The notes under the pieces: model-generated
Seen by the model: the letters and a program-made list of their open reading frames with translations, nothing else
What the model was told of the DNA's origin: nothing
Databases searched by the model: none
Position numbers and translations under genes: made by a program
NCBI GenBank assembly: GCA_024679065.1
Contig: JAGIQG010000013.1
Location: forward strand, 23,932,001-23,996,000
Direction of reading: 5' to 3'
DNA length: 64,000 nucleotides
DNA from: Sphyrna mokarran
Taxonomy: Eukaryota
Shown here: piece after piece, positions 19,060-60,539 of the stretch
Numbering within the stretch: the stretch's first letter is position 1
How the letters are laid out: each line of letters starts with the position of its first letter

Positions 19060-19365
19060 CCATATCTTGACTCTCACCAAATCCTGTTCACAGTTCACTC
19101 TTGTGATATCAACCTACACTGACTCCTAATTAAGCAGATCTTAAAATTATTATCCTTGTTTTCAAATAATGCTATGGTCTTGCTGCTCCCTATCTCTGTA
19201 ACCTCCTCTGGATTACAACCCTGAGATAATAGCACTTATGCATGCCCGATTTTAATTACTCTATCAGAGATGGCTGTGTCTTCAGCTGGTTCCTGAAAAT
19301 CTTTCTATCTCTCCTTCCAACTATAAGATGCTCCTTTTTAAATCTACCTTTTTGAGCAAGCTTTG
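19060..19365 (+). mobile_element. L2 LINE 3' fragment
   Basis: ctacactg.ctcc, atccttgttttcaaat, ccctatctctgtaacctcctc; resembles the copy at 51330. Confidence 0.65.
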
Positions 19366-19377
19366 TAACAAAAATCA

Positions 19378-20478
19378 TCGACGAAGTACGAGCCATGGAT
19401 GTTGTCTACATGGATTTCAGTAAGGCTTTTGACAAAGTCGATCATGGTAGGTTGGTAGAAAAGTTTAAGGCTCGTGGGATACAAGGACAGGTGTTAGATG
19501 GATTGAGAACTGGCTTGGTAATAGGAGACAGAGTAGTAGTGGAAGGGTCCTTTTCTAACTAGTGGTGTGCTGCAGGGCTCAGTACTGGGACCATTGTTAT
19601 TTGTAATATACATAAATGACTTGGAAGAGGGAGTAAGTGGGGTGATCTGCAAGTTTGCAGATGATACGAAGGTGGCTGGAATTGCTGACAGTGAGGAGCA
19701 GTGTCAGGCAATGCAGCGAGATATAGATAGGCTGGTATATTGGGCAGAGAAATGGCAGATGGAATTTAATCCAGATAAATGTGAGGTGATGCATTTTGGA
19801 AGAAATAATGTACGGGGAGTTCTACAATAAATGGTAGGCCTATTAAGAGTATAGAAACGCAGAAGGAGCTTGGGGTGCAAGTACACAAGTTCTTGAAGGT
19901 GGCAGTGCAGGTGGAGAGGGTGACGAAGAAGGCCTGTGGTATGCTTGCCTTTATAGGGAGGGTATAGAGTATAAAAGCTAGCATCTAATGTTGCAGTTGT
20001 ATAGAACGTTGGTTCGCCCGCATTTGGAATACTGTGTCCAGTTCTGGTTGCCTTACTACTGGAAGGACGTGGAGACCCTGGAAGAGTGCAGAGGAGGTTT
20101 ACCAGGATGTTGCCTGGTATGGAAGGGCTGAGCTACGAGGAAAGATTGGGCAAATTAGGGCTGTTCTCCTTAGAAAGGCGGAGAATGAGGAGAGATCTAA
20201 TAGAGGTGTATAAGATTATGAAGGGTAAAAATAAAGTGAAGAGTAGTAAGCTTTTTTCTACGTTGGATACAATAATTATGAGAGACCATGGGTTTAGGGT
20301 GAGGGGGGCAAGGTATAACTCAGATGTTAGAGAGAGATTTCTCACACAGAGGGTGGTGGGGGCCTGGGATGCACCGCCAAGTAACCTGGTGGAGGCAGAC
20401 ATGCTAGCATTGTTTAAGGCTTACTTAGACAGGCACATGAGCGGACTAGAGATGGAGGGATACAGGAGACTTTTCTAA
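19378..20478 (+). mobile_element. CR1 LINE, ~1.1-kb 5'-truncated copy with RT motifs
   Basis: [49 protein letters not shown]; frameshifted. Confidence 0.95.
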
Positions 20479-21085: not shown

Positions 21086-21231
21086 GTTCTTTGTTCTTTA
21101 TCTGTTCTAATTTGGTTTAGTGTCAAAAGAATTATAACTGATTCTTTAGGGTTTTTTTCCCCTATCAAAACTGCCATGTATTTTGAGCAATTTCTAATTT
21201 CATGTCACATAAACTTTTTTTTGTGTTGTAG

Positions 21232-21824
21232 GAGAGGAGCAGGAAAAGCAGAAGAGTGATGATGACACTACTGCTGGTATAGCACTGACATCAATGGCCA
21301 GTGAAGAAGGAGATGGTCTTCATTATGTCATGTATCGTCACTCCCCTGATACCTGTTCAAAGGTTGATACACTTGAAATGAGACTGAGCATGTTGCAAGA
21401 TGGAGCAATCAACTACTCATACGTTACAAGTGCAGAAGATGAGAAATCTGTCTTGAGCACAACATGCTTAATTGGGCAGGGGGATAATGGCGTACAGCAA
21501 AATCTACCCCTGTACAGAAAATCAGTGAATGAAGACAGTAGACGGTACAGTTTGCATAGGACTTCTAAATGCTCGACATCCTTATCACAGCAAGTAGAAA
21601 ATAGATCCATTTCTATCACAGCTATACCTACAGAATCTCAGAATATCACCACTCAACTTAGTTTCAACAGTCCATCCCTGGTCTATAGCACAGTAGAGTG
21701 GGATTATGCACCATCTACGCCAATAAAGGAGAAGTACAATAGTGGCATCAATGATTTAGCAAGCTGTCAAGTCTCTGAGGTCAGTAACATGTCTAAATGT
21801 AGCAAAAACTCGGATGAAGGTTAG
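21232..21824 (+). CDS. Terminal coding exon of a plus-strand gene; probable ROS1-like receptor tyrosine kinase C-terminal tail
   Basis: Strong acceptor (ttttttttgtgttgtag|GA), phase 1, open for ~197 codons to TAG, not repeat-like. DDDTTAGIALTSMASEEGDGLHYVM resembles the ROS1 last-exon segment (…M..K.REGLNYMVL) and DGAINYSYV resembles EGLNYACL. The exon itself is well supported; the identity rests on recalled similarity and synteny only. Confidence 0.55.
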
Positions 21825-28575: not shown

Positions 28576-31104
28576 TCACAGCCTTCGTATAGCAAGTTTA
28601 ATATTAAACTTGACTACACTTTCCTCCAATTTCAATTTTTTACAGCATTTAACTTACTTTGAAGTGTACCACATGGTGTTTCCTAAATGTAGTTTGAATA
28701 CAGTGCAAAGCCCTGAAGATAAAAGACTCCCAATGGCATAGTTTTTAGCTGGATTCATTTTGACGGTTTGATAGCTTTCACATTATTAGTTCCTCAGCTC
28801 CTTATAACCATTGTCCCTTGCACTGCTACTAATTTGTCTATTGCAAACTTGAAATAAAAGGCATAAAGAAATACTCATTTAAAAGAAATTAAAATTCCTG
28901 TCTTTCATGTCAATATTCACTTATTCTCCTTTACTTGAAATTTCCACCAATAAAAGAGCTAAATTTCCCTATCACAGCAAAACAGAATAAATCATACAGT
29001 CCAGCAAAGACTGACCAAGCAGCCATGTTAAATAACATACTAGTAATAGTCTTTAGCTGCACCATTAGTTAATTTCTATCCAGGGAGCAGAACATTATTG
29101 GAGTTGATAAAGCTAAACCGAAATCAATAAAAGATTTTACCAATTTTCACACAATTTTTTTAAGTGCATTGATTATATTGCCCAGTTGGGGTATGTTTGT
29201 TGTGAACAATATATTGGACAATATTCCATAATCTTAGATCAGTCAACACTTCTTTAAAAAAAGAACAAATGTGGTCTATTATCTTTATTTCAAGTTTGCA
29301 ACGAACAAATTAGTAGCAGTGGAAGGGACAATGGTTATAAGGAGCTAAGGAACTGATAATGTGAAAGCTATCAAACCGGATGAGCTGAGTAAAAAGGTGG
29401 GGTTACAGGGATACGGCCTGGGTAGGATAGTTGCCAGTGCAAACTCGATGGGCCAATTGGCCTCCTTCTGCACTGTATGGATTCTATGATTTTATCAAGA
29501 TAGTGTGACATATTGAAGAAATGAAGTTATTCTTAAAATAAGACAACCTGCGCCAAAAATGAAACCTTGGTTTTTAATATAATTTGGCTTTAATTGTGAT
29601 TTATTGTCACTAATGAGAGCCTGACTCGGTCAAAGGCAAAATCCTACAGTATTATAATTCATCTGCAATTACTTATCTCTAAATATAACTAGTTCTTGCA
29701 TTTCACCCATCTTTAAATTAGCAGTTATATTTGCACTGTATGCAGTTACACAAACATTGACACATGCTTTGCAGGAGACACATGATGGATTCATTGGCGC
29801 GTTTCAAAAAGAAGAGAACAAATTGGCTGAAATTGTTCACTCTGAGTTAACAAGGTCTCTGCATGTGTATAAAAGGTATAGCTTAAGCAAAAAATGAAAA
29901 CTTCCTACCATTGCCATATGGTCTTGTACCTTGAAAGGATGGTAGTGCTTATGAAGCATTAAGCTTCAAACAGCTGGGATTGTGTATGTGATTGTTATCA
30001 TAGTCATCTGTCTAATTATACAGGAATGCAGCAAAGTCCATGTTATGTTTTGACAGCTCAGTTCACGGAGTTCCCTTAAGGCTCCCAATTAGACTATGGA
30101 AAGAGGAAATACTTGTAGAAATGATTTTGTGTCAAACAAATAAATTTTTGGAGTCATTACTGCACTTAGTCTCAGTCATATTTGAAATGCTGTTTTCTCG
30201 CACGGGCACCTTTTGAATTTGCAAATGCTATTCAGGATTTTCTGAGACTTGTTGGCAAATGTAGAGAAGGCATGAATGCGCTATTAAAATGCAAACAGCA
30301 GATCATATATAATGTAAGAGAACACCCACGTGAAAGTTGAAAAGATTATTTTGAGATGATTGGCATTGAGATAAAAATCATCTCATATGACATGGTCTTT
30401 TTTATGTTTTGACATTTAGACAAAGATATGCAAATAATTCCCGAATACAATAGTGGCATCTGTGTAATATTGCAACTTCAGACTGTGACAGGTTTTCAGA
30501 AGATACTTTAAGGTATAAATGCTTTTCAAATTTTCCTCAATATAAATCCTGTAATTACTTTGGATACACACTTTGTAAAGGGTGTAGAGATGGATTACAG
30601 ATTTTCAGTGAGAACAAGTGGTTTACAAGTTTAGGACCACTGTCTTTCTTTTAGTAAACCATCCATCCTTGTTTTGAAACCAAGATTCCGGCCGAGGTCG
30701 AAACAAAAATGTTTTAAAAGCCTTTTGCACTGGACAGGAGCGTAAAGAGACATCACTATTCTAGTGATGACTTGAAAACCCCATACTGTTACCATAGGGA
30801 TGATCTGAGCTAAACTTCATCCACAATAGTGCTGAATGCTTTTGATGATCTTTAGAATGGCAAGAATCCAGATGAGTTTCAACAGTGAGATTGCAGTAGA
30901 AAATCTGTTTGAAGATTGACCTTTCAAAATTCTTAAGTGGCGTTTTAATTGTCAAGATTGTGGTGAGTATAACTGAAACCTGTAGACTGGGTGTACAAAT
31001 TGGTTTGTTCACTAATCTGAATTTCTGTCCTGCGAGAAAAAGATAGCTCAAAATAGCCAATGCTGTTGCTACAATGTAAACACTTTAGATTCAAATATTA
31101 TCTC

Positions 31105-34124: not shown

Positions 34125-34223
34125 CAAAGGAGAAGATGCTGGAAAATCTCAACAGGTCTGGCAGCATCTGTAAGGAGAGAAAAGAGCTGATGTTTTGAGT
34201 CCAAATGACCCTTTGTCAAAACT
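34125..34223 (-). mobile_element. Penelope-like element end with a degenerate hammerhead motif
   Basis: Reverse complement: ttgacaa-agggtcatttggactc-aaaa-catcagc...acagatgctgccagacctg. Confidence 0.65.
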
Positions 34224-34229
34224 CTTGGC

Positions 34230-35102
34230 CAAACCAAATATGCTACAACCAGAAAGAATGTTTTCTATGGTGCATCTGCAAAAGTTGGTGAGAGTTGTAG
34301 CTGACATGTCAAATTTCCTTAATCTTCTGAGAACGTAGAGGCGTGGTGGACTTTCTTAACTATAGTGTTAGGGACCAGGACAGATTGTTGGTGATCTGGA
34401 CACCAAAAAACTTGAAGCTCTCAACCCTTTCTACTTAGTTCCCATTGATGTAGAGAGAGGCATGTTCACTTTACGCTTCCTAAAATTGATGACAATCTCC
34501 TTCATTTTATTGACATTGAGAGAGAGATTATTGTTGCCACTCCAGTTTCCCAGATTTTCTATATCATTCCTGTATTTTGTCTCATCATTGTTTGAGATCC
34601 GACCCACCACGGTGATGTCATCAGCAAATTTGAAAATCAAATTGGAAGGGAATTTGGCCAAACAGTCATAGATGTATAAGGAGTAGAGTAGAGGCTGAAA
34701 ACACAACCTTGTGGGGCAGCAGTGTTGAGGATGAACATGAAGGAGGTGTTGTTGCCTATTCTTACTGATTGTGGTTTGTGAGTTAGCAAGTTCAGGATCC
34801 AGTCACAGATGCCAAGGCCTAGGCGATGGAGTTTTGGAGATGAGTTTTGTGGGAATAATGGTGTTAAAGGCTGAGCTATAATCAATAAATAGGAGTCTGA
34901 CATAGGTGTCAGACAATGATCTTCAATGTTACATCTATAAAAGTTGGGTGAGAGTCATAGCTGACATACTGAATTTCCTTAGCCACCTGAGAAAGTAGAG
35001 GTGTTGGTGGGTTTTCTTAACTATAGCATTGAGACAGGTTGTTGGTTTCTGGACATCTAGAAGCTTGAAGCTCTCAACCATTCCCATTTCATCTTCATTG
35101 CT
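34230..35102 (-). mobile_element. Rex1/Babar-type LINE RT fragment plus a second short copy
   Basis: APQGCV, YDC..KF.SN.IFKFADDITVVGRISNNDE..YR, NNLSLNVNK.KEIVINFRK. Confidence 0.85.
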
Positions 35103-35704
35103 GTCTTCCATCCACTCTGCATTTCTGTCTGAAGATGATTTTAAATGCTTCAGTCTTGCCCTTTGTACCTGCTGGGATCTGCCATCATCAAAGACGTGAA
35201 TGATTGTGAAGGTTTTTCCTCCCACTAATTGTTTAATTATTAGCATTGTTATGACTGAATATGACAGGGTTACAGAGTTTTGATTAAATCCATTGGTTGT
35301 GGGATCACTTTCCTCTGTCTATCATTTTCTGCTTTTGGTGCTTAGTATTTGTGTAGTCCTGTTTTGTAGCTTCACCACATTGGCACCTCATTTTTTTTAG
35401 GCATGCTGGTGTTAATGGCATGTTGATTATTTTGTTAGAATGCATAGGAGAAGAACATTATTTAATTAAGTACTTTGAGCATGTATACATAAAGGACACT
35501 GGACACTCTGTAGGGAGAAACAGCTATGAATCTAAATAAAATCAACAAACTATTTTGCTAGAGAAAAGCTCCATGTTTCATTTTTAACTTTATCAACTAG
35601 CTTGGATTCTATTATCACCTGATTCTGCAAATGGTGTGTTCTCTTACACTCTTCATTGAATCAGGATTTATCCTCTGTTTTCATGGTAATGGTTGTGTGC
35701 AGTT

Positions 35705-39552: not shown

Positions 39553-40596
39553 TTAACTTAAAAGACCTAACTCCCAGAATTGTCTTGATTTTTTTGAAAC
39601 AACTCTCACAAAGCAGTGAACTTCTATTCGGCCATTGGAAGGGAGTCCTAGAATCCCTCCAAGAGCAGTGACTGCTCTTGGAGCCTTTGAAGGAACTGCC
39701 CGCAGGAAACACAGCATATGCTTTAGTCAGTCACAAACCAATGTGGCAAACAGGCCTGAAACCGGCGTCAGACAACTTTTGTTAAGCACTCTTTATTCTG
39801 GAGGAAGCACAATAGAGGATTAAACTGTCACATCTGTTAATGGAGAAATATTGCAGAACTAGGAAGGCTTGAACTATACTGCCTATTAGGAAGTTGATCC
39901 GCCTGAGATTGTCTCTGACGGAGAGTGAGGAATTTCACACTATTCGGCTTCAGACTGGGATCTGACTTGAGCCAAATTTCCACCTTCGTGGCAATGCACT
40001 CTTGAAACTGTGCATGTGGTTTTTAATGGCAGGTTTGTAAAGTGAACCTACCACTAAAAGCCGCAAGTACTAGCTGTACAACAAGATAAATACGCATCAC
40101 CCTCACCACATTCTTCACTGCATTGCACTGAAGATATAAGGATAATCGATTCTGAGGTACAATCACCATGCACCCATAGCTGTGTTGACATTTTTAATAT
40201 CATAGAAACGCCTTCAGTTGCAATCTTAACGCTGTTCTATTATAATTTTATTTGTTGCATGTCTTCATAGGCAAGAACCTATTGCTAATATATGTACAAA
40301 TACATATTCCAGTGGTAACCAAGCTTTCCAACATAAACGATACTTTAAAAATTTTTTAAAAAACCTTCCAGTTGGTCACTGTATCACCAATTACTGACTA
40401 TCCCATTTAGACTTGCCAATTTCTAAGGCTGCTCGTAAAGGGTCAGAGCGAGCAGAATATACGGCTCATATACACCTGCTCTGCCACTCCCAACAGTCAT
40501 GATGTAAAGATGCCGGCGTTGGATTGGGGTGGTAAGAACTCAGCAAGAATTTAGCAACACCAATTTTTAATCCAACCGATGTATTTGATAGTAAAA

Positions 40597-40634
40597 TTGC
40601 GAGCTTTCAACACTCTTGTGTCTTCCTCAGGCAA
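40597..40634 (-). ncRNA. Mirror copy of the minimal hammerhead motif
   Basis: Exact reverse complement of 40781-40818. Confidence 0.7.
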
Positions 40635-40780
40635 ATGCAGTGTTCTGGTCTGCAATAGCACACATCAGCACATTCAGTCAGAGATTGCTGATTAGATCGC
40701 ATTCTAATCAGATCGCATTCTAATCAGCAATCTCTGACTGTCTGTGCTGATGTGTGCTATTGCAGACCAGAACACTGCAT

Positions 40781-40818
40781 TTGCCTGAGGAAGACACAAG
40801 AGTGTTGAAAGCTCGCAA
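40781..40818 (+). ncRNA. Minimal type I hammerhead ribozyme motif (Penelope-type)
   Basis: ttgc-CTGAGGA-a-gacac(aaga)gtgtt-GAAA-gctc-gcaa: stem I ttgc/gcaa, catalytic boxes, stem II, palindromic AGCT stem III, UC cleavage site. Confidence 0.7.
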
Positions 40819-41885
40819 TTTTACTATCAAATAAATCGGTTGGATTAAAAATTGGTGTTGCTAAATTCTTACTGAGTTCTCCCAACAGTGGCCAGTGTAA
40901 AAATATATTCATTGCTGACACTGAGGTTTTGTTTACCGGATCACAGCTTGGATAATTATTGCGGTAGTTATCGAGGAGAAGTTGGACAAGGTATCAACTT
41001 CTCCTTGATACCTTGAGAATCAAGGAGCATTTTTAATAACTGCTGTGACTGCTCTTCTATTCACAACGCCCGTATTTATAAATATAGAAATTATTTATAC
41101 AGATCAACCATCCTGGATAACAGCCAGCGATGAATCAATCAGCAGTTTATTAATAAATGAAGTTTGATTATGCACGCGACAGATGGTTAAAATAGTTTGC
41201 AATAGGTTTTCAGATTTACACTTCAGTGAAGATACTGTATGCAAGATAATGGCTAGATTCTGGGGCATCTCGGCAGTATATGGCTTAAGGGCACATTTGT
41301 ACCATTTACACGTGTTTGAAATCCGTGACTTGCACTCAGACGGTCAGGAAGGAACATTGCTGCTTACTTGGGATTAAGAACGAGAATAGGCTGTTCACTC
41401 CACAAATCATGTCTAGCTTGTTCTATTATGGGCTTCACCAATTTATTTCATCTCTCAAGGGAAGATTCAGCTGCTCTGGGCCGCCAAAGATGATTTGGAC
41501 AAAATCTCTGAATTCCTCTCAGCATTTAAAAATATCAGAATCATGTCTGTTCAGCTTTCTGTTCGCTAAGGAAAATACACGGAATTTTCTGACTCCCACT
41601 TAAGGAGGTAGCACTGTATTTTCTGGAATGAGCGTTCAACCTCTTCTCACACGCCACAGTTTGAAAGACGTGCTGTTAGGTCTACAAGCGCCGGAGCATG
41701 GCGATTAGGGGAATTTCACTGTAACTTCATTGCAGTGTTACTTATGACTATAGTCTAACATTACAGCCTTATTTACGACTAATAAATAATCTTTACTTAT
41801 TGCTGTATCAAAAGTCATGTTGATGGTATAGTAGCTTAGGGTATGCAAAGTTAGACGTGTCTGATTTTGAACTAGTCCCAGCAAT

Positions 41886-51329: not shown

Positions 51330-52050
51330 TCAGCTCATCTGTTGATGAAACCCTCATTCATGCTTTTACAATCTCTATGCTACCCCAGTGCACTCCTGGC
51401 CAGCCTCTTACATCTTCTGTAAACTTGAAGTCTTTCAAAATTCTGCTCCCCTTTTCTTTACAGATCAAGTCCCTAATCATTCTGCTCAGTGACCTGTTCC
51501 TATTTAAATTCCTTATGCCTTCACACCTTCCTGTCTCTGCAGTTTCTTCCAGTCCCATAACTCTACAAGACAGTGGCCTCTTAATCATTTCTGATTTCAG
51601 CTGCTCCATTGTTTTTGGCTGCACTTTCAGCTACAATATACTTAGCTCTGAAATTTCATTCCTAAATTCTCCAACTCACTAGCTCTCTATAAGATGCTTC
51701 ATAAAGCCTGCCTTTGACCAAACTTTTGGTTAACTGCCCCATATGGCTCCACATCAAATTTTGTTTTATCCTCTTCCTGAGACCCTGAACTAAAGCTGGG
51801 GTCAAACTCAACTCTGCCAGAAACGTGATGATGACAAGATTGGGAGCCATTTTACCCATAGCCATCAAGATTTCCTTTAGTCTTGTGAAAGTCTTCATTG
51901 TGGTCATCCCCTTCCTCTACATGGCCACTCAGATCACAAGAGCTTTGCCTCATTACTGGTGGAACATGATGCAGGTTGATGATGATAATGAGGATGAATT
52001 GTAAAGTGCTTTGGGATGCTTCATGATGTTCAAGGTGAATTGTTGTTGAT
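51330..52050 (+). mobile_element. L2 LINE 3' fragment
   Basis: ETLIHAF motif; tail tgtaaagtgctttgggatg. Confidence 0.7.
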
Positions 52051-54375: not shown

Positions 54376-54578
54376 CCACTTATCTGATGAAGGAGCATAC
54401 TCCAAAAGCTGGTGGCATTTGCTATCAAATAAACCTGTTGGGCTTTAATCTGGTGTCGTGAGACTTCTTACTGTGCTTACCCTAGTCCAACACTGGCATC
54501 TTCACACCAGAAGATGGCTTTTGCTACCAAATAAACCTGTTGGACTTTAACATAGTGTTGTGAGACTTCTTGCTATGT
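54376..54578 (+). mobile_element. Penelope-like pLTR tandem fragment with an inactivated hammerhead
   Basis: CTGATGA-a-ggag(cata)ctcc-AAAA-gct; two tandem tttgcta.caaataaacctgttgg units. Confidence 0.75.
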
Positions 54579-55810: not shown

Positions 55811-56041
55811 TGAATTCTTTATTTTGCTAAAATGTGAAAGTATTTGGATAAATGCTATTGATGTAATTCAATTCAATACCTGCATTTTAATATATATTTT
55901 TAATTACACCAGAGCTTTGATAAAAATATTATCGTTATTTAAAATCACAAGATACGAAAGTCTTAACCAAATAAAAACATTGCCAAATCTTTTATTTGTT
56001 AAGATTTTCCAATAATTTCAAGGAAATGACTTCCTCCTTAC

Positions 56042-56530
56042 CTGTATCAAAGTTTACTGCTTGTGCCATTTCAAGCGCACCATGAAAAGCTCCAGTCCAT
56101 GACGAACCAGCAGCTGGAGTAGTAGGGTCCGTCTTTGTGATCTCACCTGGCGCTGTGGTAATCCTGGCTGCCCTCACTGATGGTACCAAGAATGAGCCAT
56201 AACACGGGTCGAGATGCGGGCTGTGATGGTGGGCGTGGGCATGTGGGTGGTGCATATGTGGGTAAACCTCATGCACAAGCGGATAGCTGGAACTCCCCTG
56301 GGACGCCAGTGTGTAGGGCCATGGCTCAGCAGCGGAGGGCGGGGCGCTGGCCTGGTGTAGTCCATGTCCAGGCCAAGCCATGGGATCTGGCGAGTGAAAC
56401 ACCGCACCGGACGCAGTAGAGATCTCGGGGTGATTTGCATTCAGAGGCGGTGGTGCTGGGGCTTGGTAGGTGCTGCTCCAGAAAGAAGCAGGGAAATTGT
56501 TCTTCTGACTTGGAGGGAATGGCGATCCTT
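56042..56530 (-). CDS. VGLL3: Vestigial-like protein 3, coding exon 3
   Basis: Acceptor tttttcag|AA, donor ACAG|gtaagg, phase 1/1. Encodes NFPASFWSSTYQ, DPMAWPGHGLHQ, a His-rich tract, LDPCYG..L.PSV.AARI, ITKTDPTT and W.GAFHG...FDT, all characteristic of VGLL3. Confidence 0.9.
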
Positions 56531-57752
56531 CTGAAAAAGGAGGAAAAAAATAAGGACATTAAAATTTGCCAGATCCTTTGAATGTAATGTGCAAAATACT
56601 ACTGTACAGATACAATAGTCGGATGGACAATAGAGTGACTGCAAACAACTGGGATCAATAGAGGCAACAGCAGGTTGTTTGCTGAAATATTATGCAACAA
56701 ATAGAAGCTACATCCAATATAAATCTTCCCAATCGCGGCTAACCACGATTGAGAAATGGGGCATTCGGTGTAATTGGATTCTTAAATCGAAGTTGACGTG
56801 AACTATAGTGAATCTCCGGATAGCCTGAAGCTTTTTACCGCTCAGCGTCTCTGCACAAGGTTCACTTCAACCGAGCCCCGGGGAAAACAACAGTGTTTGA
56901 CAGTGGAATAAATCTCCCACACTGCAAGTGAGCGCAGAGTGTAGGATTTTAGCCTGATCGGAAGTCTTCCCCAGCGATCAGTTAGTTAGCAGCCTGCCTC
57001 CGCTGCTAACTCCTTTTCCTAACTCGGATGCACCAGCCAGGTTTCCCCCACTTTGCCTCCACTGGCACCTTGTTACGCCACGCAAACATTAAAGGTGTAA
57101 AAAGGCAGGCTCTCCAAACTTAACGGCAGGCTCCGCTTATTAAGATTACATTAAGATGCAAGAAAATAAACTGAGAATTAGATTTAGTGGAAGGGCAGGG
57201 CAGTTGCGAGGTAGAAGGTGTCAGTGTGACGGGAGCAGGTAATTTATTATTATTATAATCACAGTGTGAGTAAAACTGGATGGATTCTGCACACCCTCTA
57301 TTACAGGAGAGTCAAGGCAAAAAAAGTGCGATCCCATTTCAAAGAGGAGTAGCCGACCTTTAAACTATCAAATAGAGAGTATTCAATAATCCCACTGGCA
57401 CCACAAATCTTTTATTGCTGTTTGCAAGATGTAATAATTTATCAATATGAGTATGATAAATAATACTGGATTGGGTCTATAATTCGGTCAAATATTGCCC
57501 CAGATGGCACACTTTAATTAAAACTAACATTCCCTTTTGAACCTGCTACAAATAAATATTCATAGGTGTAAGTCTTCCTCCGCTAACCATAAGTACTCCT
57601 TGGTCAAGTTTCTCATTTAGTCCAATTTCTTTACACACTCAGTAAATCCCTCAACATTTCTCCACACTAATTCTTTGCCAATAAGCTGCTAAATAAGCGA
57701 CCATCAGTTCATTAGAGTGGCAGTGTTTATTTGCAGAGATTGTTTGCCCCAC

Positions 57753-58005
57753 CTTTCCACACGGAGCTGGAGGAAGCCTGGGGCTTTGAGCTCGGGCTGT
57801 CGCTCCCGTGGAAGTTGCTGGGCTGACTGAGGGCTCTGCTGAAATGTTCGTCCACCACGGCGCCGATGTCCCCCTGGAAGTAGGTGAGCAGTACGCATCT
57901 GGAGCTGATGTACTCGGCCTCGGGAGGCTGCTCCTTCTCGCTTTCTTTGCTGGGCGGGTTGTTCTCCATCGACTCTTGCATCTTCCCGGGCCGGGCTAAC
58001 TTCTG
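57753..58005 (-). CDS. VGLL3: Vestigial-like protein 3, coding exon 2 (TONDU/TEAD-binding domain)
   Basis: SRCVLLTYFQGDIGAVVDEHFSRAL; acceptor ttgcag|CAGAAG, donor AAG|gtgggg, phase 0/1. Confidence 0.93.
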
Positions 58006-58299
58006 CTGCAAGTTGAACAAGGGAGCAAACGGCAACAAGAGTTAGGACACAAATCTCTCTCCCTCTCTCACTCCGCGAGCAAGTTGCACTTTTACTGCAC
58101 CCCACGGCGCTTACAAAAGGACTGTCCCGTTATTAGAAATACAAAATACAATATTCGCTTTCCTTATCAAAACTTCACAAATTGAACTTCCTATTGATTT
58201 TGTCCAAAGAGAGAATCAGAAAGTCATTTGAATGTGCAGTGGCACTTCAATTCCAATTCTAATTCTATCCTTTAATAATATATTTCTGCAACCTCCTTT

Positions 58300-58410
58300 C
58301 TTTCTCCCCTATGTGTTTTATGAATAGTATGTTTTGTCTGTACAGAGCGCAGGAAACAATGCTTTTCACTGTACACCAATAATGTGACAATAATAATAAA
58401 TCAAATAAAA
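58300..58410 (+). mobile_element. Rex-type LINE tail
   Basis: gcgca.gaaacaat.cttttcactgta...aataataaatcaaat. Confidence 0.7.
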
Positions 58411-58574
58411 AAATCCAATATATCAGTGAGATGATAAAACTTGCTGAACAAATTAATATTTAAATCCTATTTCTGTATAGTCGATATTAACTATGATTTG
58501 TATATTTAGTGATATAAATGTATTAGGGTCCAGTGTAGATTACAAAGCCGAGTTATGATAACAAAGGGCCATAA

Positions 58575-58845
58575 GCAGCGTTACGGCCTCGTATGCTCAT
58601 AGCGCCAAGGACCTGGATTCGAGTCCCGATTTAGATCTGTATATTCTCCCCGTGTCTGCGTGGGTTTCCTCCGGGTGTTCTGGTTTCTTCCCACAGTCTG
58701 AAAGACATGCTGGTTAGGTGCATTAGGCATTCTAAATTCTCCTCAGTGTACACGAATAGGCGCTGGAGTGTGGCAACTAGAGGATTTTCACAGACACTTT
58801 ACTGTAGTGTTAATGTAATCCCACTTGTGACACTGATATTTAAAC
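58575..58845 (+). mobile_element. HE1-type SINE in VGLL3 intron 1
   Basis: Core plus alternative tail. Confidence 0.85.
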
Positions 58846-59349
58846 TATAAAGGATTTATGTACCTCAGCATTGTGTACACAATGTAGGATGTCATGAAAA
58901 AATCCGATCCTTTAAATAACAGAAAAGGGCCCGACCTCCAAGATTCCAAAAACTTCTTCTGCTCCCTGCTGCTGGGATATCATTCTCCTTCATATCCAGA
59001 GTCAATCCCTTGAAAATGTCGCGTTCCCACGGCTTGTTACTGTGGTCTAGCCTGTCTGCTTGCAGAACTATTCACATCTTGAATGAGTTTAGCGTGGCAG
59101 CATTTACATTTCACCATTACACCTTATCCAAATCACTGCTGCAAATTGCAGCTCGATCCTAGCTCGGTCGCTTTATTCACGTGAGTTCTGCCACTTGGAT
59201 TAATGGTGGCTTATTGTTCACTGATTCACACTGGGTTATTCCAGTACCTACTGGAGGTACAGTTGTTGATTGATTTAATATCTGTCCCGGGTTGAGGGAG
59301 TGATTCAAGGACCATTTCCAAACAAAAAAAAAAGCAGATGCCAACATCA

Positions 59350-59432
59350 GTTCTGAAGAAGTCATACTGAATTCGAAAAGTTAATTCTGTTTCTCTCCAT
59401 CTCTTTTTGCCCAGATGCTGCCAGACCAGCTG
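59350..59432 (+). mobile_element. Penelope-like end with hammerhead boxes
   Basis: CTGAAGA-agtcatactgaattc-GAAA..tta...cagatgctgccagacc. Confidence 0.6.
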
Positions 59433-60181
59433 GGGGAGGGGTGGGGGTAGAAGCGGGTTTCTCCCTCAGCAATTGTTGTGTTGATTTCACTATTACTGCA
59501 AAATGGGCAGCAGCTGCATTTCCAATTGCATTCGGTTGTAACTTTTGCACCGCACAATTGTCAGACAGGCTCCAAGGATCTCTTTTTTTTTACACAGAAG
59601 GTGTTTTCCCAGAAGATAGAAATCGGAATGTATGTGTGTCACGAAGAAAAATAAAGTTAGATTCGTTTAATTTTTTTTAAGTGATCCTTTGATCAGGTGG
59701 GAAACTCGTTCGACATTAATCAAAACAGGGCTGTTTTATCCTGACAGTTGCACACGCGGGGAGTAAGTGAATGAAATATAATTCTTGGGGATAACACATG
59801 GACAAATGAGACGGGCCCCGGTTTTCCATTCCTGCGAGTGCTTTTGGGTTGAGGGCTGAAACACTGGGAGAGAAACACACCCACCCCTCCGACCCACGGG
59901 CTGCTATGCAGAGAATTTCAGAGCAATCTTGTCAGACATATCCGAGAGGTCGCGTCATGTGTTGTCAAACGGAATGAAGAAACCGCAGCGGAATTTGACA
60001 GCTGACTCACAGCCAGTTTACAAGGCAGCTGCTATTTCGCCTCTCTTTCTCACCCTCCCCTTGTCTCCCCCCCCCCCCAACCCTTTACACCTTCTCTCTC
60101 GCCCTCTCCTGCCTTCACCTCGTTTGTCTCAATCAGATGCCCGTCTGGTTGCTGGGTGGCTAAGGCTGGCACTGCCCTTAC

Positions 60182-60298
60182 CTGCTGTGACTGATGGTGA
60201 CGGTAACAGGCTGTAGTGTAGGCTGCGGCGGCGGCGGCTGCTGGAAAGTACTGGTGCGCTCCATAAGACTGATGATACATAACATCCAGACAACTCAT
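60182..60298 (-). CDS. VGLL3: Vestigial-like protein 3, coding exon 1
   Basis: MSCLDVMYHQSYGAHQYFPAAAAAAAYTTACYRHHQSQQ; 39 codons, donor CAG|gtaagg, phase 0. Confidence 0.92.
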
Positions 60299-60539
60299 GA
60301 CCGACCCCACTTTCCGACCACTCGCATTTGTGGTGGATGGGCAGAGGGGTGGCGGGGAGGGGTGGGGAGGGGGAAGAGAGACTGGAATGGAGGGGGTGGG
60401 AGATACTGCTTCACTCTTAGAAGGGACTCGTCCCTCGCATCCTCGCTTTGTAAGTCCTCGCTGGAAGGTGGGGTGGGGGGGGGGGGGGGAGAGGCAGAGG
60501 GGGAGAAGAGAGAGTTAAAAAGTTCTGAACATTAAGACA

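Follow-up and report, generated by a model that had tools for sequence, protein, structure and literature searches.

A palindromic Penelope-like insertion in Sphyrna mokarran: a 5'-truncated copy probably reverse-transcribed from both ends of one staggered cut

The window analysed here, 64,000 nucleotides of Sphyrna mokarran DNA (GenBank assembly GCA_024679065.1, contig JAGIQG010000013.1, positions 23,932,001 to 23,996,000 of the forward strand), holds a minus-strand vestigial-like gene whose exons lie near 60.2, 57.8 and 56.0-56.5 kb (window positions 55995-60300) and a Vg_Tdu domain at 57730-58041 (-; Pfam, E=2.4e-18). We take this gene to be VGLL2-like; its last exon was looked for and not located. 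On the plus strand, an exon resembling a kinase C-lobe precedes the window by 7 kb (L137:2871), and a 203-aa open frame at 21213-21821 (+), which had no Atlas match and found only itself in the genome, may be the last exon of the same gene. The two probably belong to the 3' end of a gene for a receptor tyrosine kinase, presumably ROS1-like. The insertion described below probably sits between these two genes, which converge on it, with recognised exons no nearer than about 19 and 15 kb; an intronic position is also possible. A Pfam scan of the 250 stop-free frames of at least 62 aa gave no match near it. Elsewhere in the window, a degenerate-looking EMRE/SMDT1-like frame at 51789-52001 (+; PF10161, E=1.4e-9) is possibly a processed pseudogene, and decayed LINE fragments with RVT_1 and related Pfam matches lie at 19356-19827 (+) and 34152-35318 (-). 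A 95-nt inverted repeat (28764-28858 / 29284-29378; 94% complementary, 425 nt apart) gave no match to the Penelope-like element (PLE) references used.

The insertion is a mirror-image sequence of 381 bases, accompanied by 11 duplicated target bases. Its parts, and a separate PLE copy in the same window, are as follows.

40487..40497 (+), left copy of the target-site duplication (TSD), 11 bp; repeat search and empty site
40498..40534 (-), 37-nt PLE tail without a pairing partner, closing the tail-bearing arm on its 3' side; stops at the ORF start codon, whose A is at 40500
40535..40696 (-), left, tail-bearing arm; 3' UTR/pLTR, positions -196 to -35 from the ORF start
40597..40634 (-), minimal type I hammerhead on the minus strand, mirroring the plus copy; cut predicted at 40601/40600
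40697..40718, centre and putative cDNA join site, 22 nt; parent sequence of the right arm starts at 40713 (position -202)
40719..40880 (+), right, tail-less arm; ends at position -35, its last 2 nt overlapping the right TSD copy
40781..40818 (+), minimal type I hammerhead, plus copy; motif scan and folding
40879..40889 (+), right copy of the TSD, 11 bp; repeat search and empty site
54384..54510 (+), separate insertion outside the palindrome: pLTR-tail stub of another PLE subfamily with a broken hammerhead core

The first-pass annotation had described arms of about 162 bp with some four mismatches inside an 11-bp direct repeat, and this description held: pairing of 40535-40696 with 40719-40880 gave 162 bp with exactly four mismatches (40544/40871, 40581/40834, 40673/40742 and 40674/40741), with the repeat at 40487-40497 and 40879-40889. 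By repeat search the arms could be extended to 171 nt at 95%, and the 22-nt centre contains a 16-nt tandem duplication. With the A of the ORF start codon set to 0, the left arm with its tail spans -196 to +2 (minus strand) and the right arm -202 to -35 (plus strand). The product is an inverted repeat of head-to-head arms that has two hammerheads and a single tail. No ORF is left, the RT domain being absent through truncation. All four arm differences, when compared with the family majority, sit in the left arm; a systematic arm difference at 40544/40871 was considered and rejected, the G there not being a common family allele. Alignment of the left side to the parent element extends to 40495, and the last 3 nt of the left TSD copy match the element just beyond the ORF start, as priming microhomology.

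Contigs from other sequencing runs contain the empty site. One contig of run X5 joins 40204-40484 to 40877-40959, skipping 392 bases with 95 letters on its shorter side, and one of run X4 shows the identical 392-base skip with 27 letters on the shorter side; in runs X6 and X7 no joint skipping the insert was seen. Since the skip equals the spacing of the direct repeats, the repeat is a true target-site duplication, and the empty site in two related genomes establishes a true insertion, so that the search for such a site proposed in the first-pass annotation was answered. Run X1, perhaps the assembly's own sample, provided contigs over both outer junctions (39900-40521 and 40855-41500) with 0 differences. 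In run X3, guessed to be RNA, the repeat-derived bases were covered and the flanks were not.

In a genome search, 40 scored candidates yielded 87 matches, of which many are palindromic. Other palindromes of about 300-410 bp with TSDs, the subject of a BLASTn check proposed earlier, are present. Whole units of 3,013-3,018 bp at two loci (L121 and L134) have a pLTR and tail that match the palindrome arms, in the order pLTR, tail, ORF start, RT, C-X4-C-X2-C linker, GIY-YIG and pLTR. The single ORF of L121 carries an RT domain (RVT_1, PF00078, E=1.7e-9) together with a GIY-YIG endonuclease at the C-terminus (PF01541, E=2.7e-5; both Pfam), and in longer copies the stop codon of the GIY-YIG frame lies just upstream of the arm sequence. 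These matches bear out the proposed Penelope origin, and the alignment to the parent confirmed that the pLTR is inverted, as head-to-head arms plus tail. The partial-tandem pLTR structure, the 37-nt tail, the inverted 5' copy and the TSD are all present. The C-X4-C-X2-C linker precedes the endonuclease in L121, L134 and L068; a CX2-5CxxC linker in this position is the Neptune/Nematis criterion given in PMC8557442, and by this criterion, which does not separate Neptune from Nematis, the family appears to be of Neptune/Nematis type. The palindrome is a heavily 5'-truncated copy of this Penelope element of about 3.0 kb, which is probably of Neptune type.

A 29-mer from the 3' side of the hammerhead had 2,966 exact matches genome-wide (1510+1456), with 0 for a control. 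Two samples of copies were drawn: all 76 clusters around the first 100 listed 29-mer matches on contig C1, and 38 new clusters from the first 100 matches of another pattern, placed downstream of the ribozyme cut site. Both come from one contig and are biased to well-conserved copies, a few single arms being near-duplicates of each other. Sample 1 contained 47 head-to-head pairs and 39 single arms, sample 2 20 pairs and 19 single arms; inversion is thus common in the family (67 pairs vs 58 single arms). Pair lengths form a continuum from about 120 bp to 5.2 kb. No junction was shared between any two of the 47 pairs of sample 1, and in sample 2 all 20 were distinct. TSDs of at least 7 nt, located with a finder run without a shuffled control, flanked 38 of 47 and 20 of 20 pairs; most measured 12-13 nt, microhomology included. 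Because junctions are distinct and lengths continuous, the palindrome is a short member of a size continuum, made afresh at each insertion. Boundaries and internal structure vary from copy to copy, where a mobile unit or retrozyme would keep them fixed, and the term 'non-autonomous hairpin retroelement' used in the first-pass annotation is not supported; the palindrome is one size class of the ordinary insertions of an autonomous element.

Further features of the family were noted in the samples. Of 131 arm 5' ends, 40 fall in a cluster between -132 and -150, a little upstream of the hammerhead (L061-L136 and L139-L176); from the end positions, this is probably the RNA 5' end. Near-identical copies with the same breakpoints occur close together on contig C1 (L062/L063 and L139) and are probably segmental or tandem duplications of one insertion. 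Six copies (L064, L099, L117, L129, L062 and L094) have extra internal inversions or short pieces of the ORF 5' end at the junction, which suggests further template switches.

Motif scanning of the whole window located complete minimal hammerheads at +40785 and -40630, and a third match at -9261 with weak stems. Each arm carries a 4-bp stem I, CUGAGGA, an unpaired A, a 5-bp stem II and GAAA-GC-UC. In the plus copy, stem I is formed by 40781-84/40815-18, the core by 40785-91, stem II by 40793-97/40802-06 and the GAAA box by 40807-10, with a predicted cut after 40814; the palindromic stem III/loop AGCU at 40810-40813 would allow a dimer. Core boxes, stems I and II and the unpaired base after A9 are all present, and the core is conserved across the sampled arms. 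A double change preserves stem II pairing in a subfamily copy (L149). At this locus the 10.1-11.1 pair is G-U, with U in 92 and C in 29 of 121 arms. The suggested Rfam hammerhead search gave no match at E<=1 anywhere in the window, and the presence of a minimal hammerhead on both strands is upheld by motif scan and folding. A contrast in stem II with the copy at 54384 had also been drawn. It is literally correct, but that copy belongs to another subfamily, is 75% alike over 97 nt, and has a broken core, with AAAA in place of GAAA and a G as the last base of the cleavage triplet. The 54384-54570 (+) stretch consists of this second-subfamily stub followed by a second partial copy in tandem.

Folding predicts a stem pairing probability of 0.7-1.0 for the isolated motif and of 0 for the full hairpin on either strand, and with plus-strand prefixes ending at 40820-40850 the predicted ribozyme-stem pairing is already 0. 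On each strand the antisense arm is transcribed first and there is one sense ribozyme only, so that no dimer can form within one molecule and no co-transcriptional switch is expected. Of the earlier suggestions, sequestration of the ribozyme in a read-through transcript is consistent with these predictions, whereas the co-transcriptional folding switch is not. A transcript across the insert is predicted to form a duplex of about 165 bp with the hammerheads held inactive; this copy is likely inert and at most a source of dsRNA if read through. No pile-up of 5' ends was found at the cut site (-100): one arm ended at -99 among the 27 ends inside -200 in sample 2, sample 1 being poorly able to show a pile-up because its pattern spans the site. 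According to PMC4209133, a single minimal motif gives no cleavage and dimers give low cleavage, and PMC11167929 describes the ribozyme of the lizard element PAc as protein-assisted and dispensable for insertion in vitro. The hammerheads are proposed to be passengers of the pLTR.

The ends of the sampled arms follow a strict rule. Two end points are used by single arms: in sample 1, 21 of 39 stop at the ORF start and 18 about 35 nt before it; in sample 2 the figures are 8 and 11 of 19. Among the pairs of sample 1, exactly one tail was present in 46 of 47, compared with 50% expected from the single arms (p=2.6e-13 vs independent choice), and the same was found in 19 of 20 pairs of sample 2. Over both samples, 65 of 67 pairs combined an arm reaching the ORF start with one that stopped about 35 nt short of it. 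The exceptions are L072, a false pair without a TSD, and L149, from a divergent subfamily, in which 30 nt still separate the two ends. Upstream reach followed no such rule: of the 66 pairs left after dropping L072, 26 had a tail-less arm that went beyond its partner by over 10 nt (at most about 2.2 kb), 23 had a tailed arm that exceeded the other by over 10 nt, and in 17 the two ends lay within 10 nt of each other.

Arms of one pair resemble each other. At non-CpG diagnostic sites they agreed in 290 of 324 comparisons in sample 1, against 170 expected, and in 73 of 83 in sample 2, and mismatch in sample 1 was 2.3% within pairs vs 4.4% between pairs. Both arms were short or both long in 44 of 46 pairs (sample 1) and 19 of 20 (sample 2), at a cut-off of -165 that was chosen after sample 1 and held in sample 2. 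The agreement indicates that the two arms of a pair have a common template lineage. The studied palindrome belongs to the long class, so its template was likely the internal pLTR-ORF junction of a tandem transcript.

One pair bears more directly on the template. In the long arm of L083 (G000:C1:20004657-20008685), 34 of 89 A's read G over -807..-543 (265 nt), and 5'-G neighbours are depleted (3 of 20), as is expected of ADAR. The short arm has 8 of the 11 edits of the overlap in common with the long arm and none of its own, and an edited 24-mer occurs genome-wide in those two arms only. Because the common edits are A-to-G on the sense strand, both arms appear to have been copied from a sense RNA that was hyper-edited before insertion. 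The three one-arm edits fit two RNA molecules or imperfect reading of inosine. Scoring of 59 arms in sample 2 brought up no further copy with clear hyper-editing; L173 was not counted, its nine A-to-G changes being scattered (vs one T-to-C). Across the family the A-to-G bias is weak, at 8.0 per kb compared with 6.0 for T-to-C, and L083 accounts for most of it. A literature search for ADAR-edited retrotransposons returned nothing related.

Taken together, the palindrome is probably a single 5'-truncated insertion that arose when the two ends of a staggered cut each served as primer for reverse transcription of one and the same sense RNA. The element's GIY-YIG endonuclease would cut both strands about 9-11 nt apart. 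One 3' end would then prime at the ORF start, taking the tail in, and the other about 35 nt upstream, leaving it out, each aided by 2-3 nt of microhomology. Both cDNAs would run upstream along the same stretch of RNA, stop at -196 and -202 and be joined end to end, with the 16-nt duplication arising by slippage.

Other origins of the palindrome were weighed against this one. An assembly or library fold-back artefact would fit a centre that is not spanned by any of the run contigs checked, but is scarcely credible in view of the four arm mismatches, the asymmetric tail and 11-bp TSD, the empty site differing by exactly 392 bases in two other runs, the outer junctions both present in X1 and the dozens of like structures elsewhere in the genome. 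Likewise very improbable is a non-autonomous hairpin element transposing as one unit and controlling its own ribozyme. Other palindromes of this size with TSDs do exist, and two of the top BLAST matches (L002 and L004) have one centre in common, joined at a 5-nt microhomology. The latter two, however, differ at four lineage-marking sites, which points to recurrence of the junction and not to descent, and no top BLAST match has the centre of the locus studied here. The lack of a common junction among the 47 and 20 sampled pairs and the continuous insert lengths also argue against a mobile hairpin, and the predicted folding leaves no window for ribozyme activity.

With insertion accepted, the source of the second arm has to be explained. 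Each nick might have copied a different RNA molecule from the same source locus, the two being held perhaps by a protein dimer or by dimer-forming hammerheads. Two templates would be the simplest way for both arms to copy the same stretch, 3 of the 11 L083 edits are in one arm only, minimal hammerheads are built to act as dimers (PMC4209133), and dual priming has been proposed for L1 (PMC2837659). Indeed, two RNAs from one source locus account for the common variants almost as well as one RNA. The proposal is possible but doubtful: alone, it leaves unaccounted for both the different start sites in 65 of 67 pairs and the arms that are both short or both long in 63 of 66, and the L083 edits divide into 8 common, 3 long-arm only and 0 short-arm only (Fisher p=0.003, uncorrected for site preference). 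Fold-back or self-priming, in which one cDNA, or the antisense template favoured by PMC3846280, snaps back and copies itself into the second arm, would also account for the common variants and is in keeping with the short self-complementary centre at this locus and with the L002/L004 microhomology. As a general rule it is excluded, since a second arm copied from the first cDNA cannot be longer than it, yet 26 of 66 pairs have the longer arm on the tail-less side. It also gives no reason for the second arm to end 35 nt short, where 18 of 39 single arms end too, and the L083 edits are sense-strand A-to-G in both arms and not fully common. We consider fold-back improbable, though it could serve for single near-symmetric copies such as the studied palindrome.

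Priming of both cut ends on one sense RNA may extend beyond this locus. On balance we lean towards inverted pLTRs of PLEs being a routine two-ended product, in which a dimeric RT-endonuclease on one sense RNA primes once at each of the two start sites that bracket the tail. Against the reading of one site per strand counts the in vitro work on a lizard PLE, in which the start sites showed no strand difference (PMC11167929). If the two-ended account is true, the tail is the offset between two active sites and antisense self-priming becomes unnecessary. ADAR-edited copies such as L083 would then be molecular barcodes of the one-RNA reaction, and germline Penelope dsRNA would have been edited and written back into the genome. 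The locus itself is a real but ordinary stub of a known kind. The value of the analysis lies in the family statistics on how PLEs make inverted ends and a one-sided tail. For this, PMC3846280 proposes antisense self-priming and asks for experiments, and PMC11167929 leaves later steps of PLE insertion unvalidated. The counts give a sharp prediction, namely one RNA, two primers and two different start sites, which the existing in vitro system could address. Copies of the family also place many long perfect hairpins across the genome, and these are a standing dsRNA source at any site that is transcribed.

The insertion resembles those of EN+ PLEs as described for Pen2a_Av (PMC3846280) and in PMC8557442, with a head-to-head inverted 5'-truncated pLTR, a tail of 30-40 bp at one end, a TSD of about 9-11 bp and a parent encoding RT, a CX2-5CxxC linker and, at the C-terminus, a GIY-YIG domain. 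It differs from the published EN+ insertions in that both arms are cut to about 200 nt and no ORF remains. Self-priming or endonuclease resolution is the origin that the two papers give for the inverted layout; the evidence for one template, the one-tail rule and the finding of longer tail-less arms come from the present work and are not part of those accounts as consulted. In the literature searched, from which subscription journals were mostly absent, no statement of a one-tail rule or of a two-nick, one-RNA account for PLEs was found.

The Anolis Poseidon element PAc (PMC11167929) offers a biochemical parallel. It has two RT start sites bracketing the tail, it cuts and extends both strands, as is proposed here, and it has a hammerhead adjoining the ORF start and a protein predicted to be a dimer. 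PAc nevertheless belongs to the Poseidon clade and its start sites lie 111-118 nt into the ORF, compared with the start codon here, and in the account available two-strand priming is not linked to inverted insertions. The ribozymes are like the minimal type I hammerheads of metazoan PLEs (PMC4209133) in their short stem I, the unpaired base after A9 and the palindromic stem III/loop, and unlike the usual ones in having G-U in place of G-C at 10.1-11.1. Opposite-strand hammerhead pairs 100-700 bp apart have already been noted in Schistosoma (PMC4209133).

Non-LTR retrozymes (10.64898/2026.07.22.740005) are similarly PLE-derived, non-coding and hammerhead-bearing. They are, however, tandem direct repeats of a fixed unit, whereas the present locus holds no tandem ribozyme unit but a single inverted pair with a unique junction. 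The closest mechanistic likeness outside PLEs is to twin or dual priming of L1 (PMC2837659), where a nick in the second strand primes a second cDNA and two inverted fragments come to lie within one TSD. The L1 fragments do not overlap, whereas the arms here duplicate one stretch, and inversion in L1 is a minority outcome with a variable internal priming site, whereas the second site here is fixed at about -35. The palindrome thus works like twin priming, but not in its L1 form.
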